Virus record (IMG/VR): IMGVR_UViG_2513237162_000001
Coordinates: 1-43,910 of that record
Direction: 5' to 3' (one strand)
DNA: 43,910 nucleotides
DNA from: a virus
Shown here: positions 30,559-43,751 of the stretch, piece after piece
Numbering within the stretch: the stretch's first letter is position 1
Layout: every line of letters begins with the position of its first letter
Made by a program: the position numbers and the translations under genes
Notes under the pieces: model-generated
Told to the model about the DNA's origin: nothing
The model's database searches: none
What the model saw: only the letters and a program-made list of their open reading frames with translations

Positions 30559-30741
30559 TCAGCTTTGGGAGATTGAGAGGCTGCCGGGGTGGGAAAAGGC
30601 GAGTTGGATGCCCTCAGCTAGCGCAGCCTCTAGCTCACGATCTGCTGATGGATAGTTCTGGTCGATGTGGCGCTTGAACCACCGGGCGAACGCGACAACT
30701 GTGATCGGGGTGAGGATTATGGCTGCCAAAACGTAGATCAT
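30559..30741 (-). CDS. Small membrane protein
   Basis: The 60-aa product has an N-terminal TM helix (IYVLAAIILTPITVVAFARWF). Its start overlaps the upstream stop. Confidence 0.5.
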   Translation of the reverse strand: MIYVLAAIILTPITVVAFARWFKRHIDQNYPSADRELEAALAEGIQLAFSHPGSLSISQS

Positions 30742-31271
30742 GCCGGTACTCCCGTGCGGGTTTTGTTGGTGGTCGAAAGGCGACCGTATTCGCCGTGATA
30801 CTTTATAGATCCGGCGTCATAAGCTTCCGCCGCCTTCTCAGGCGTGTCGAAATAACCGAGAGAGTGGTGCTTTCTATCTACTCGGATCTGCGCAACCCAT
30901 AGACCCTTGGCTTTGTGCCAGGAGACGCCCTTGAAGCCACTCGTGTTGTTCTTCGCTGGCCCTTGGTTACGACTATTGAGCGCCGCAGATGTGACCCGAA
31001 GGTTGCAGAAACGATTGTCTGCCCTGACGCAATTTATGTGATCAACAACACCGACTGGCCATCGGCCTGTCATCAAGAGGAAGGCCAAGCGATGAGCCTT
31101 GTAATACTTGCGGTTAATCCCGATAACGATGTAGCCATAATAGCAAACAGTGCCAGCTCTAGCCCCTGTGGGGGTTCTCTGGGATGTGTTAACTTTCCAG
31201 AAAAATTCACCGGTTTCGGCGTCGTACCGTAGGACTTTGGAGACATCTTCAAATGAATGATCACCCATCAC
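30738..31271 (-). CDS. HNH endonuclease with C-terminal AP2 DNA-binding domain (copy 2)
   Basis: It has the motif AHRLAFLLMTG...VVDHINCVRADNRFCNLR...NNTSGFKGVSWH...LWVAQI...LGYFDTPEKAAEAYD...GEYG. It overlaps its neighbours at both ends (ATGA). Confidence 0.8.
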   Translation of the reverse strand: MMGDHSFEDVSKVLRYDAETGEFFWKVNTSQRTPTGARAGTVCYYGYIVIGINRKYYKAHRLAFLLMTGRWPVGVVDHINCVRADNRFCNLRVTSAALNSRNQGPAKNNTSGFKGVSWHKAKGLWVAQIRVDRKHHSLGYFDTPEKAAEAYDAGSIKYHGEYGRLSTTNKTRTGVPA

Positions 31272-32360: not shown

Positions 32361-32435
32361 ACTATATCCTCTTTAGCGGACACGTCAAGCATCCTCTATG
32401 AAGGACGTGCGAAAATATCTGATTTAGAGGATATT
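32361..32435. promoter_or_regulatory. Divergent genetic switch: three 16-bp operators plus the cro-side and repressor-side promoters
   Basis: The operators are ATCCTCTTTAGCGGAC (32366..32381), ATCCTCTATGAAGGAC (32391..32406) and ATCTGATTTAGAGGAT (32417..32432), spaced 25-26 bp centre to centre. The minus-strand promoter has its -35 at 32384..32389 and its -10 at 32361..32366. The + strand -10-like GATATT lies at 32430..32435, 6 nt before ATG 32442. Confidence 0.65.
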
Positions 32436-32441
32436 GCAGCC

Positions 32442-32747
32442 ATGGCAGACGAAGCATGGCGAAAGCGTCTAGAGGACGCGCTTAAAAACTCGAACCGATC
32501 CAAGCGGGAGATATCTCTCAAGGCTGGGAAAGGCGCGGGCTATGTTCACTCTATCCTGAGTGAGGGGAAAGACCCGACGATTGAAAGCCTCATAGCGGTT
32601 TGCCAGGAGCTGGGCGTCAGCCTCACTTGGATTGTTTATGGATTCGAAATTTCCCCGGCGACTGAACAGCTTCTTTCCCTGATCGAGCAGAACCCCGATG
32701 ATCGAGCGGCTGTGTTGCAGATCCTGCAGAAGCGAGAAAAGGCTTAA
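32442..32747 (+). CDS. XRE-family HTH repressor (cI-like, no peptidase domain)
   Basis: ATG 32442 opens ORF 32313..32747. The HTH reads SKREISLKAGKGAGYVHSILSEGKDPTIESLIAVCQELGVSLTWIVYG. Confidence 0.7.
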   Translation: MADEAWRKRLEDALKNSNRSKREISLKAGKGAGYVHSILSEGKDPTIESLIAVCQELGVSLTWIVYGFEISPATEQLLSLIEQNPDDRAAVLQILQKREKA

Positions 32748-32974: not shown

Positions 32975-32988
32975 AGAGGATATCCTCT
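32975..32988. repeat. Perfect palindrome AGAGGATATCCTCT (two operator half-sites fused back to back)
   Basis: The halves AGAGGAT and ATCCTCT match the right and left operator halves, but in GGAT-ATCC order with no spacer. Confidence 0.6.
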
Positions 32989-33017: not shown

Positions 33018-33692
33018 TCAGTTTCTAAGGAGGCGGAGGCCAGCATCGATAGGTTCGGGGCGGTGATCTGTCTCGTCCCACGCGCCTTTTCCTTGGTTGC
33101 ACTCTGCACATAAAACCTGGAGATTCGATCGATCAAGACGAAGATGCCAATGATGGTGAAGCGGCTTGATATGATCGACAACGATCTGGACGCGTGAGCC
33201 GGTCATGTCCAAATGCTTAGGAGTAGCACCGCAGCACATGCAAATCGAACCATGCTCTTTCAGGACTTCCATCCTAAGTTTGCGCCAATCCCAAGATTTA
33301 TAGAATTCGTCCTTTTGGTCTTTGGAGGGGACATATTCCTTTTTCGTCAGGCGCTCCAAAAACTGCTCGTTTTCGGCGTTTAGCCTATCCATTATTTTAT
33401 TCCGGACGGCCCTTTGCGGGGCGCCTCGATATTCCTTCTGCATTTTCCGGCGCTGCTGTCTGCTTATGTTATCGATCAAGACGCTCGCAGCGTTGATCAT
33501 GCCTTCCTGCGTGGGAAAGCGCGCGATCTTGCGCTGGTAAATCGCTTCTAGGAGGTCCCAGAATTCCAGCTCGGTTTTTATCTCTCGGACTTTAACCCCG
33601 GCCGCGTTCAGGTAGCATTCCAGCGATGTGAGGCGTTTTTTGCCTTCGACGCTCAGATTCTTCATGCTGAAACCGTATTTATCTTTAGCCAT
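33018..33692 (-). CDS. HNH endonuclease with an unassigned ~130-aa N-terminal region
   Basis: The C-terminus reads FYKSWDWRKLRMEVLKEHGSICMCCG...IVVDHIKPLHHHW...NLQVLCAECNQGKG. Hand counts over the gene give about 45-55% GC. Confidence 0.8.
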   Translation of the reverse strand: MAKDKYGFSMKNLSVEGKKRLTSLECYLNAAGVKVREIKTELEFWDLLEAIYQRKIARFPTQEGMINAASVLIDNISRQQRRKMQKEYRGAPQRAVRNKIMDRLNAENEQFLERLTKKEYVPSKDQKDEFYKSWDWRKLRMEVLKEHGSICMCCGATPKHLDMTGSRVQIVVDHIKPLHHHWHLRLDRSNLQVLCAECNQGKGAWDETDHRPEPIDAGLRLLRN

Positions 33693-33858
33693 TGTACTTC
33701 TTAACCCTTATCCAACGACTAGGCTCTAAGCAACGAACGTAGTAATCCCTTGCGGTCGGAAAGAGATCCGACCCAAGGAACTACGTGTCTTCATCCACTC
33801 GACTGAGTATCTTAAGTTTCCGACACGTATCCACGGCTCACCATATGACGGTGATTAC

Positions 33859-34182
33859 TTGTCCGCTTCATGCTGGTATTTCTATAGGCCCAAGAAGCCT
33901 GAAATCACTGACCGGGTTACCAGCCCCGTGGTGCATATTGTCAGCCCTTTACCACCGTCATTCCGGTAGACACGATATATTACGGTCCCGCCTAGCACCT
34001 TTACCCACGTCGCAGCGCCAACCGAAACCTAACGGCGCGGGCATCACCGGATAAAATTCTAGGAGGAGATTGAAAAGGTAAGAGCGTTACGTTATAACAG
34101 TCTTACTGGTTCTTCTCGTCAAAGAATTCTCACCAGTCACCGCCCCGGCTCTCGTAAAAGAGCGCGGGGCATTTCTTTGTTG
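33859..34182 (+). ncRNA. Candidate ~290-nt noncoding RNA (promoter-like element to intrinsic terminator)
   Basis: TTGTCC (33859..33864)-N17-CTATAG (33882..33887) is promoter-like. No credible ORF is present. An SD-like AGGAGGAG lies at 34061..34068. The terminator lies at 34142..34182. There is no experimental or covariation support. Confidence 0.3.
34142..34182 (+). terminator. Intrinsic terminator, + strand
   Basis: GCCCCGGCTCT-CGTAAA-AGAGCGCGGGGC forms 11 bp with one bulge. It is followed by ATTTCTTTGTTG. Confidence 0.65.
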
Positions 34183-34215
34183 TACTCTCCTCTCAAAATC
34201 GATTCAAGAAAAATC

Positions 34216-34265
34216 GTCCTCTATAAAGGATGGAGCTTGTGTGTGTCCTCATTAGAGGATATATT
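34216..34265 (+). promoter_or_regulatory. Early + strand promoter with two operators (PL/OL analogue)
   Basis: The promoter is TTGTGT (34237..34242)-N17-TATATT (34260..34265). The operator GTCCTCATTAGAGGAT (34245..34260) fills the spacer. A second operator, GTCCTCTATAAAGGAT, lies at 34216..34231. Confidence 0.6.
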
Positions 34266-34293
34266 AATCTGAGAAAATCAAGAGGAAACGCAG

Positions 34294-34500
34294 ATGGAAT
34301 ATATGGAATCTCAGATGCAGCAGCGGTACGACGCCTACAACGACGCCCTGAAGCATGCGGAGGATCTCGTTGCCGAACTTCTTAATGCCCTCAAACTTGC
34401 TGAGGCGGTCTATCGGAAAAATGTAGTCGCTCCAGGCGAGCCATCATCTGTCCTCGACGCAATGCAAGCTGCGATCTCCAAGGCAGAGGGCAGGTCATGA
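34294..34500 (+). CDS. Hypothetical protein (first early gene)
   Basis: From the ORF track. GAGGAAA lies upstream of the ATG. Confidence 0.6.
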   Translation: MEYMESQMQQRYDAYNDALKHAEDLVAELLNALKLAEAVYRKNVVAPGEPSSVLDAMQAAISKAEGRS

Positions 34501-35100: not shown

Positions 35101-35152
35101 ATCCTCGATAGCGGATATTTCCATTGACAGTATCCTCTAAAGCGGATAGAAG
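35101..35152 (+). promoter_or_regulatory. Second repressor-controlled + strand promoter inside the early region
   Basis: The promoter is TTGACA (35124..35129)-N17-TAGAAG (35147..35152). The operator ATCCTCTAAAGCGGAT (35132..35147) sits in the spacer. A second operator, ATCCTCGATAGCGGAT (35101..35116), lies upstream. This is the same architecture as at 34216..34265. Confidence 0.5.
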
Positions 35153-35338
35153 AGAGTGGCAAGCAACGAACCGAGACGAACATCTCCAACACGGAGGGCG
35201 TCATGTAGATCGCAGCACGGGGCGTGCGTCCGTCGGGACAAACCTACGAGCTGGCCGGGCAGATAGAACCCCGGAGTAGATAGTTGGACTTTTAGATCGG
35301 TGTTCCTGAGCAAGAACGGAAAAGGCTCATCAGATTTC

Positions 35339-41216: not shown

Positions 41217-41621
41217 ATGACGGATGTCGGCACCACCAAACGAAGGTCTATGACACCCACCAGGCGGCTACGGCTATTCGAAGCCCATAAGGGAATTTGC
41301 TGCCTTTGCCATGAGGCGATCGATGGCGTCCGGGAAAAGTGGACGATCGAGCATCTTCGCGCTCTCGGGCTCGGTGGCGAAGACGTTGATGACAACTGCG
41401 CCCCGGCCCACGAAGATTGCCGGCGCATCAAAGACAAGGACGACGTCGAGCGCATAGCGAAGGCCAAGCGCGTCAAGCAGCGCCACATAGGCGTCCAGGC
41501 CGCTCCCAAGCAGAAGATCAAGTCCGCCGGCTTCCCGGTATCGCAGAAATCCGCAGCACGACAGACGAAGATCCCGCTGGCGCCGAGGGCGCTGTTCAAA
41601 CCGATCGAGGAGACGAGATGA
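41217..41621 (+). CDS. HNH endonuclease
   Basis: It has the motif CCLCHEAIDG...WTIEHLRALGLGGEDVDDNCAPAHEDCRRIK. Confidence 0.7.
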   Translation: MTDVGTTKRRSMTPTRRLRLFEAHKGICCLCHEAIDGVREKWTIEHLRALGLGGEDVDDNCAPAHEDCRRIKDKDDVERIAKAKRVKQRHIGVQAAPKQKIKSAGFPVSQKSAARQTKIPLAPRALFKPIEETR

Positions 41622-42592: not shown

Positions 42593-42963
42593 CGATTCTC
42601 GATGAAGCAATCTCGCCAGCCGTCGCCGTTGCCAAGCTTCAGGCGGCCGGCATACAAATCTCGGAACGAACCTTGCGGGAGCGAGCGCGGGCGCTGGGCG
42701 CCTGCCGGGTGCTAGGCAAGGCGATGTTCCTTCTGCCGTCCGATATCGACATCATCATAAATGCCGCCAGACTGGAGCCGAGACAATGCCCAACCTCTAC
42801 AAAAGGGACGGAAGCGACGTCTGGCAGTATGACTTCACTGTGGACGGAGAACGATACAGATGCTCTTCTAAGACGCGTGACAAGCGGCTCGCGGAAGACA
42901 TCGCGATCAAACACGAAGACCGGGTCCGTCGTGCTGCTGTCCACGGCGAAGAAGCGGTCCTAA
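42589..42963 (+). CDS. Excisionase-like HTH protein (tentative)
   Basis: The call rests on its position immediately upstream of int and on the HTH-like ISERTLRERARALGA...MFLLPSDIDIII. The ORF runs 178 nt into the int gene in another frame. Confidence 0.4.
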   Translation: MTILDEAISPAVAVAKLQAAGIQISERTLRERARALGACRVLGKAMFLLPSDIDIIINAARLEPRQCPTSTKGTEATSGSMTSLWTENDTDALLRRVTSGSRKTSRSNTKTGSVVLLSTAKKRS

Positions 42964-43751
42964 CCTTTCCCGAAGCCGTCGCGGAATATCTTAACGACGG
43001 CAAGGACGGCAGGTTCCTCGCGGAACTCATCAAATATTTCCGCAAATGGAAAATGAAGGACATCACCGGCCCCGAGATCCGCAAGGCCGCCAAGATCATA
43101 TACCCAGATGCTTCAGCCGCAACATGGAACCGCCAGGTTATCACGCCGACGCGTGCCGTGATCAACCATGTTGCCGAGGCAAAGCGGTGGCCGAAGATAT
43201 CGGTCAAGCGGTTCAAGGAAGAGCGGAAATCGCGACCGGCCGGCGACAAGGTGTGGCTGGAGACATTCTGCAAGACCGCGAAGAAGCTGGATATGCCAGA
43301 GACAGCCGCTATTGCCCGCTTCATGTTCGAGACCGCCACGCGTGTTTCCGAGGCTTGCCGCATGACATGGGATGACGTCAGCCTTCAGGAGCGTGTGGCC
43401 TATCTGGAGAAGACCAAGACCGTCCCGCGCAAAGTGTTTCTTACCCGCGCCATGGTCGTCGACCTCGCCAATATCCGCAGCCTGTATCCCGTCCTCGTCT
43501 TCGGAGCCGCCAACCGATCGACGGTCAAGAAGCGCTTCGACAAGGTCATTACCGCCGCCGGTATGAAGCGGCTGACCAGCCACGAAATCGGTAGGCATGG
43601 TTTCGCTACGGAGATGATCGTCCGCAATGGCGTAGACGTCGCTACGACTGCGGATCACGGCGGGTGGAAGTCACGCCGGCTGCTGATGGAAAGCTATGTG
43701 GAGGGGGATGCGGATCGGGAAGTTATCGACCGCGTTTTTGGCAAGAAGTGA
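42786..43751 (+). CDS. int: Tyrosine recombinase (phage integrase)
   Basis: The catalytic pattern is ATRVSE (Arg), HEIGRHGFAT (His-x-x-Arg), GGW and ESY (Tyr). It is adjacent to attR. Confidence 0.85.
   Translation: MPNLYKRDGSDVWQYDFTVDGERYRCSSKTRDKRLAEDIAIKHEDRVRRAAVHGEEAVLTFPEAVAEYLNDGKDGRFLAELIKYFRKWKMKDITGPEIRKAAKIIYPDASAATWNRQVITPTRAVINHVAEAKRWPKISVKRFKEERKSRPAGDKVWLETFCKTAKKLDMPETAAIARFMFETATRVSEACRMTWDDVSLQERVAYLEKTKTVPRKVFLTRAMVVDLANIRSLYPVLVFGAANRSTVKKRFDKVITAAGMKRLTSHEIGRHGFATEMIVRNGVDVATTADHGGWKSRRLLMESYVEGDADREVIDRVFGKK

Follow-up and report, generated by a model that had tools for sequence, protein, structure and literature searches.

Within a temperate Rhizobium phage, recovered in full as a 43,910-nucleotide (nt) stretch of viral DNA (IMG/VR record IMGVR_UViG_2513237162_000001; hereafter “the window”), a stretch free of annotated genes and located directly upstream of an HNH endonuclease gene is a real, conserved, and highly folded RNA gene. 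This RNA is most likely encoded on the minus strand, where sequence features predict a leftward transcript of ~455 nt ending just before the HNH gene. An earlier interpretation of the same DNA, made from its letters alone (“the sequence-only reading”), had proposed a structured non-coding RNA (ncRNA) outside of known families at this position. That core idea is upheld by the conservation, covariation, absence of Rfam match, and absence of a conserved reading frame described below, while the strand, extent, and signals originally given to the transcript are most likely wrong.

The list of open reading frames (ORFs) of the window shows none longer than 89 amino acids (aa) in 33693..34293, the 600 nt that separate the HNH start (33692, minus strand) from the first of the rightward early genes (34294). 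Gene callers also left these nt blank in an identical public contig, consistent with the ORF-poor character first ascribed to them. The 89-aa ORF had no match in Pfam, and no reading frame was kept across the homologues presented below: insertions and deletions relative to the window were mostly not multiples of three (246 vs. 20 that were), and the long stop-free stretches seen on the plus strand of the core in many members stand in different registers relative to invariant blocks. Because of these two patterns, coding can be ruled out; the ORF at 33785..34054 was correctly regarded as non-coding. The region folds better than dinucleotide shuffles on both strands (z = -3.3 for plus and z = -5.2 for minus), with single-sequence fold energies of -189.7 kcal/mol for minus vs. 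-150.2 kcal/mol for plus. It includes no family of direct repeats longer than 16 nt or with more than two copies.

The search for homologues started from the HNH protein, which led to a viral contig (L003) with an upstream region similar to the intergenic DNA of the window (nhmmer E = 6e-12). Conserved islands of this pair were converted into two DNA patterns used to scan viral, genome, and metagenome collections, followed by a profile search. Overall, pattern scans and the nhmmer profile recovered ~25 distinct loci, and a core of ~320 nt was conserved in ~20 diverged phage or prophage loci (e.g., L003, L015, L069, L052, L123, L100, and L109, by nhmmer). About half of these core-bearing loci also included a second module (window positions 34056..34170), and the scan of the genome-contig collection returned a single locus, bearing the 5′ module only.

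These diverged cores carry clear signs of selection on base pairing. From a plain MAFFT alignment of 19 cores, RNAalifold predicted 23 pairs, 14 of them with compensatory changes. We then considered the central 150 nt in an alignment of 20 sequences (A4), for which six named helices (P9, P7, P8, P6, P4, and P5) comprise 31 pairs: 89.1% of the cells were in standard pairs, compared to 75.0% after column shuffles (0/500 as high) and 30–41% in slid controls, i.e., with partners moved by 1–3 columns. Both sides changed in 18 of the 31 pairs, and the covariation score was 0.373, against 0.135 for shuffles (0/500 as good) and 0.03–0.07 for slid controls. Helices are kept by compensatory substitution beyond these controls, the general mark of a structured ncRNA, and the conservation and covariation that the sequence-only reading had suggested looking for in related phages are both observed. 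A covariance model of the central core (R1) found a single copy in the window (33825..33979, minus strand, 104 bits).

Known RNA families did not account for this element. No Rfam 15 family (including GOLLD, ROOL, HEARO, c4, transfer-messenger RNA (tmRNA), RNase P, and group I/II introns) matched the window or 10 related loci at gathering thresholds, in agreement with the initial failure to recognize a known family, and a permissive Rfam scan of 33400..34500 gave only one chance-level match to a small nucleolar RNA (E = 8). Similarly, blastn of the region and of the relatives’ RNAs against 50,697 phage records yielded no homologue of the RNA, ARAGORN detected no transfer RNA (tRNA) or tmRNA gene in the 43.9-kilobase (kb) window, and no description of the RNA was found in the literature searched, from which one possibly relevant 2026 preprint was absent.

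A minus-strand RNA is favored by the combination of a conserved minus-strand promoter, wobble asymmetry, folding energies, and same-strand downstream ORFs. The motif TTGACG/TTGCGC-N17-18-TA(C/G)AAA was found on the minus strand of 19 loci, with diverged spacers, and ends ~7 nt before a GCCCCG hairpin. In the window, the predicted -35 TTGAAT (34207..34202) aligns with TTGACG/TTGCGC in 18 other loci, 17–18 nt from the -10, and the predicted -10 TACAAC (34184..34179) with the TA(C/G)AAA-type hexamer of the 19 loci, which would place the transcription start at ~34171. Members with a different 5′ end display TTGCGC-N17-(C)TATGT-like motifs at the same place (by eye). The hexamers, their 17–18 nt spacing, and their conserved position are those expected for a sigma-70-type promoter on this strand. 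Across the named structure, 67 cells are G.U on the minus strand vs. 11 that would be G.U on the plus strand, and canonical pairing amounts to 89.1% if the RNA is minus and 80.1% if it is plus. Specifically, pairs reading A.C on plus, equivalent to G.U on minus, occur in 8 sequences for P4, 11 for the base of P5, 8 for P6, 8 for the inner part of P2, and 3 for P7, and plus-strand wobbles are essentially confined to the apical pair of P9. From the same alignment, the consensus (alifold) energy is -95 kcal/mol for minus vs. -74 kcal/mol for plus. At 11 loci, the next ORF after the core is on the minus strand and 6–103 nt away (crude ORF picks, the shortest of which may be spurious). The plus strand, first taken up as the RNA strand for its terminator-like hairpin, was dropped based on the wobble counts and promoter alignment.

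The predicted RNA (~34171 to ~33713, minus strand) would comprise a 5′ hairpin, a 5′ module, and the ~320-nt core. In the 5′ stem-loop GCCCCGCGCUCU..AGAGCCGGGGC (34142..34170), invariance is seen in the basal stem and covariation in the apical one. Read on the plus strand with the T-tract at 34171..34182, the same element resembles an intrinsic terminator for rightward repressor transcripts, i.e., a GC-rich hairpin followed by a would-be U-tract: hairpin and T-tract are conserved on plus in 8 sequences, and part of 34142..34182 is listed by the terminator scan. In addition, an internal position of the hairpin (G8/A8 vs. C24, in columns of alignment A5) is G.U on plus and A.C on minus in 8 of 13 sequences (by eye). 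Given this plus-strand G.U pair and the conserved T-tract, the 5′ hairpin seems to be selected as a plus-strand terminator too. The terminator originally predicted at 34142..34182 is thus present and conserved as a GC-rich hairpin with a T-tract, but corresponds to the 5′ hairpin of the predicted RNA rather than to the end of a plus-strand ncRNA.

The 5′ module (34056..34141) includes a stem, a variable hairpin, and a possible pseudoknot. The stem ACUGGU/ACCAGU (34137..34132 / 34110..34105) becomes ACUGGA/UCCAGU in L109, L093, L112, and L022, and is followed by the variable hairpin (34106..34078) and by UCAA (34073..34070), which can pair with UUGA in the loop of the ACUGGU stem. This loop-to-3′ pairing takes the form UUGGC/GCCAA, UUGC/GCAA, UUGA/UCAA, or GGCUUGGUG/CAUCAAGUC in different variants, such that the module may form a pseudoknot. 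The isolated AGGAGGAG reported at 34061..34068 is indeed there, but is specific to the window and was not confirmed as a functional signal.

Within the core (33724..34047; alignments A3 and A4), the helices are P10, P9, P7/P8, P6, P4/P5, a junction helix, P3, and P1/P2, and the invariant single-stranded blocks (RNA strand) include CCGUCAUAUGG, GCCnAUAGAAA, CAUGAA, and GGAUGCAU. The long hairpin P1/P2 (33737..33786) forms in 19/19 sequences with differing stem sequences, and its outer helix P1 pairs ACGTAGT (33737..33743) with ACTACGT (33780..33786). Two pairings pointed out from the letters alone belong to this architecture: the bulged hairpin CCTTGCGGTCGGA/TCCGACCCAAGG (33748..33778) falls within P1/P2 and is conserved with compensatory changes, and ACGTGTC/GACACGT (33783..33789 and 33822..33828) is a conserved helix that also shows compensatory changes. 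Inside this junction helix (33783..33828) is P3, an optional hairpin (33797..33808). The junction helix shares 3–4 nt with the 3′ strand of P1, and its counterpart in L015, L069, and L123 is the covarying pair TGCATAGG/CCGTATGCA (by eye). The 3′ tail (33713..33736; ..GUUCGUUGCUUAGAGCCUAGUCGUUGG) has a GCCUAGUCGUUG-like motif in common with L111, L100, and L098. A further helix, P0 (GGAAAC/GUUUCC), is possible yet was set aside as it shows no compensatory change (by eye). Separately, a second copy of the P1 5′ strand (GCAGUA) is found near the 5′ end of the core in L096, L109, L098, and L113 (plus-strand motif CCCTACTGCAC); this extra copy could compete for the P1 3′ strand and hints at alternative conformations.

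The RNA gene occupies a fixed place in the immunity region, between a facing repressor gene and a back-to-back early operon (recombination genes, integrase). In the window, the repressor is encoded by a helix-turn-helix (HTH, cI-like) gene (32443..32747, plus strand; Pfam HTH_3; 101 aa as called in the identical contig) that converges with the RNA gene. Relatives show a similar convergent layout, with a repressor gene of S24/LexA or HTH type beyond the RNA gene and, in the divergent operon, ERF and a PDDEXK nuclease. The leftward RNA promoter is separated from the rightward early one by two operator-like sites, TCCTCTATAAAGGA (34217..34230) and TCCTCATTAGAGGA (34246..34259). The underlying motif, TCCTCnnTAnAGGA, has 17 matches vs. 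7.7 expected, and forms three pairs (32367/32392, 34217/34246, and 35102/35133), the first of which separates the HTH repressor gene from a leftward cro-like gene. An operator-like site is found in the spacer of the cro-like promoter (scan) and of a candidate rightward early promoter (by eye), and the full site nearest to the RNA promoter is 9 nt upstream of its -35, with none inside that promoter.

Taken as a whole, these data are best explained by a minus-strand ncRNA gene of ~455 nt, which would act in trans via its fold and be linked to lysogeny, a reading we put at slightly better than an even chance. Specifically, the sigma-70-type promoter (-35 at 34207..34202, -10 at 34184..34179), back-to-back with the operator-controlled rightward early promoter, would start leftward transcription at ~34171. 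The transcript would then run through the GC-rich 5′ stem-loop, the 5′ module and its possible pseudoknot, and the multi-helix core, to end near 33713. Some transcription probably continues into the HNH gene, since no obvious terminator is seen near 33713. The repressor probably does not shut off the RNA promoter, because no full operator-like site falls inside the core promoter, and the lysogen may express the RNA. In the rightward direction, the 5′ hairpin and T-tract probably end repressor transcripts before the early promoter; transcripts ending at this shared hairpin would therefore be antisense to the RNA.

We further hypothesize that the RNA binds a protein or other macromolecule through its conserved fold, or is catalytic, rather than pairing with a phage target: the fold is under selection, and the rest of the phage contains no complementary target above chance. 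The best complementarity of the RNA to the rest of the window spans 11 nt (E ~3.9, chance level), which leaves the RNA-based secondary immunity or antisense antitoxin imagined by the sequence-only reading with no target above chance elsewhere in the phage. The role of the RNA would be linked to lysogeny as immunity, exclusion, or tuning of the switch. More tentatively, and with somewhat less than an even chance, this RNA can be proposed to found a new class of structured RNAs that are large (~450 nt) and belong to temperate phages of alphaproteobacteria. Its promoter would be built into the operator region of the switch, and it would serve lysogeny control or phage exclusion through its fold, whether as a ribozyme, a ribonucleoprotein, or an assembly of RNA alone.

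Several points weigh against a fold-acting minus-strand RNA. Its strand, start and end points, and timing are all deduced from sequence, and the proposed mode of action was reached by exclusion. In 6 sequences, the apical pair of P9 is U.G on plus, and the internal pair of the 5′ hairpin likewise favors the plus strand. Some of the pairs in the G.U tally were picked from the minus-strand fold, and the ratio without them is ~29 to 11 (estimated from the per-pair table). The pseudoknot is weak in individual sequences and significant in L100 and L112 only, and no clear terminator is found at the 3′ end of the RNA (33713..33736). Finally, the blocks CCATATGnCG and TTCTATnGGC are invariant, including in members recovered by the other search pattern, but both belonged to one search pattern, so that their invariance is partly a retrieval effect.

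The main rival to this reading is that the RNA mainly affects the repressor gene, by antisense pairing or convergent transcription, with duplexes or polymerase collision setting the repressor level, as for the face-to-face promoters of coliphage 186. The convergent arrangement of RNA and repressor genes in both the window and relatives fits this scenario, as do the conservation of the hairpin and T-tract on plus, the one pair behaving as a plus-strand G.U, and the fact that no terminator-like signal was noticed between the repressor stop (32747) and the element. However, neither antisense action nor interference needs a multi-helix fold whose compensatory changes include minus-strand G.U pairs, and the distance to the repressor gene varies, with unrelated genes intervening in many loci. 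We consider this scenario unlikely as the principal function, although it could coexist with a trans-acting RNA as an added mechanism.

Alternatively, the RNA may be a cis-acting 5′ leader (riboswitch, attenuator, or translational control) of the next minus-strand gene. In the window, this is the HNH endonuclease gene (33018..33692, minus strand; 224 aa, with a Pfam HNH domain at residues 151–203 and matches to PHROG HNH families), the start codon of which is located, on the same strand, 20 nt past the conserved RNA, and the minus-strand ORFs found 6–103 nt after the core in 11 loci (crude ORF picks) would also fit a leader. In relatives, though, this position is taken by unrelated proteins of families c4 (L096, L092, L099, and L113) or c24 (L098 and L111), directly after the RNA and on the same strand, by small ORFs, or by nothing, and in L015, L069, and L123 the RNA is followed only by the convergent repressor gene. 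For these two conserved families, no function could be assigned from Pfam, PHROG, or PADLOC, where they had no match. The downstream genes, which come from at least three unrelated families (HNH, c4, and c24), form no consistent functional class, whereas known cis-regulators go with functionally related genes, and ~455 nt far exceeds the length of typical leaders. As relatives replace the HNH gene with unrelated genes or nothing, it is a passenger and not a conserved partner of the RNA, probably expressed by read-through from the RNA promoter. With downstream genes unrelated or absent, a cis-leader role is improbable.

The ~290-nt plus-strand RNA of the sequence-only reading, running from TTGTCC-N17-CTATAG (33859..33887) to the terminator at 34142..34182, appears very improbable. 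It draws on a hairpin and T-tract that make a good, conserved plus-strand terminator, and on the P9 U.G pairs seen on plus in 6 sequences. The promoter-like sequence is present as described, but falls in an RNA block that is conserved: CTATAG belongs to the invariant TTTCTATnGGC, TTGTCC is not conserved, and neither hexamer could be confirmed in a promoter role. Such a transcript would also leave out the conserved helices P1–P5 to its left, and the energies, the G.U/A.C asymmetry, and the promoter conserved on minus all point the opposite way. The associated proposal of an RNA antisense to a long HNH leader falls as well, as the predicted RNA is on the strand of the HNH gene, upstream of it. 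Least probable of all, with a very small chance, is the absence of any RNA gene, the stretch being either the remains of a protein gene or an element acting as DNA, such as an attachment site, an origin, or an array of protein-binding sites. The long plus-strand stop-free stretches in many cores and the adjoining operator-like sites could be read this way, but these open frames occur in different registers relative to the invariant blocks, indels are mostly not multiples of three, the 89-aa ORF lacks a Pfam match, compensatory changes with a strand-specific G.U bias would not arise at double-stranded DNA sites, and the integrase gene is at the far end of the window (42786..43751).

Among known systems, the nearest kind is that of large, ornate, prophage-borne RNAs such as GOLLD and ROOL, which are bacterial ncRNAs of unknown function often found in prophages (PMC5737381, PMC12286853). 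Like these, the RNA described here spans hundreds of nt with many covarying helices and highly conserved unpaired blocks, is prophage-borne, and has no known function or protein partner. It differs in failing their covariance models, in having no tRNA genes nearby (these are frequently adjacent to GOLLD and ROOL), and in coming from Rhizobium phages, at a fixed map position in the immunity region beside operators. GOLLD and ROOL are mainly from Firmicutes. The c4 RNA of phages P1/P7 and the CI RNA of P4 are ~80-nt antisense immunity RNAs with defined complementary targets in their own operon; they share with our candidate an origin in the phage immunity region and the possibility for protein genes to follow in the same transcription unit, but the latter is ~455 nt long, with no target complementarity above chance and no Rfam match.

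HEARO/omega RNA associated with IscB is also a structured RNA directly 5′ of an HNH-domain gene. Here, however, the neighbor is a 224-aa protein with HNH only, vs. RuvC and HNH in IscB, HEARO has no match, and the HNH gene is absent or non-adjacent in relatives. A type III toxin–antitoxin system is not indicated, with no direct-repeat family longer than 16 nt or of more than two copies, and downstream genes unrelated to each other. In terms of genomic position, the closest parallel is the slot of lambda rexAB and “moron” units, which lie between cI and PL. Both slots are located between a repressor gene and an operator-controlled early-left-type operon, have their own promoter, and accept variable passengers, but in the present case the product is an RNA instead of proteins, and is transcribed toward the repressor gene, not with it.

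To our knowledge, few bacterial or phage RNA classes larger than 300 nt are without known function, and large RNA classes that have been solved are ribozymes, ribonucleoprotein scaffolds, or RNA cages. At the present locus, a large covarying RNA is part of the immunity region in temperate phages: it stands back-to-back with the early promoter, faces the repressor gene, and accepts variable passengers. If its proposed role is true, an RNA component joins a lysis–lysogeny module usually explained by proteins alone.

The portal and terminase genes of the window share ~85% identity with their counterparts in Rhizobium etli/phaseoli phages RHEph18, RHph_N2, RHph_Y25, and RHph_N3_2. RHEph18 and RHph_N2, close structural relatives cultured on Rhizobium etli, have an unannotated gap at the position of the RNA gene. 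In RHEph18 (L131 3048-3817; MW980068.1 32547-33316), this gap is 770 nt long, lies between the early operon and a convergent “cro-like repressor”, and contains TTGACG-N17-CAGAAA, a GC-rich 5′ hairpin, UGAUUGGUAG.., and a CCGACAUAUGG motif. An analogous RNA may be encoded there, in a cultured phage. Other prophages have the promoter and 5′ module described above for the RNA ahead of another conserved core, also non-coding and ~400 nt long (“type B”), found at L091 6181-~6700 (Rhizobium ecuadorense), L068, L084, L120/L124/L128, and L126/L121, convergent with an S24 repressor gene and with no Rfam match. Model R1, built on the type A core, gave weak matches to type B cores (E 0.25–0.38) aligning a P7/P8-like unit, and no significant E-value for either the type B core or the RHEph18 gap, such that homology among these types is not established. 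The RNA family may nevertheless be wider, extending to type B cores in Rhizobium ecuadorense prophages and to RHEph18-like gaps.

The remaining operator-like sites and HNH genes of the phage also displayed individual features. A leftward promoter, TTGACG-16-TATAGT (32388..32361), carries an operator-like site in its spacer, and ATG 32353 is approximately at the expected transcription start, which suggests a leaderless cro-like mRNA beginning at the position of this ATG; the public gene call starts the cro-like gene at GTG 32383 instead of ATG 32353. The third operator-like pair (35102-35146) is within the rightward operon, ahead of a gene at 35300, and implies a putative second repressor-controlled promoter there. 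Just beyond the HNH stop, a perfect palindrome (AGAGGATATCCTCT, 32975-32988) consists of operator-like half-sites in reversed order, and could be a terminator or a binding site. As for the HNH protein itself, its C-terminal half weakly matches models of PtuB, a Septu defence nuclease (E = 2e-7), and residues 1–100 match nothing. The window begins at its left end with a tail fibre gene and closes at its right end with NinB, a second HNH gene, and the integrase. Besides the HNH gene next to the RNA, the phage has two others of HNH type (30738-31271 and 41217-41621), one with an AP2 domain (public gene call), and the load of homing-endonuclease-like genes is unusually high for a 44-kb phage.

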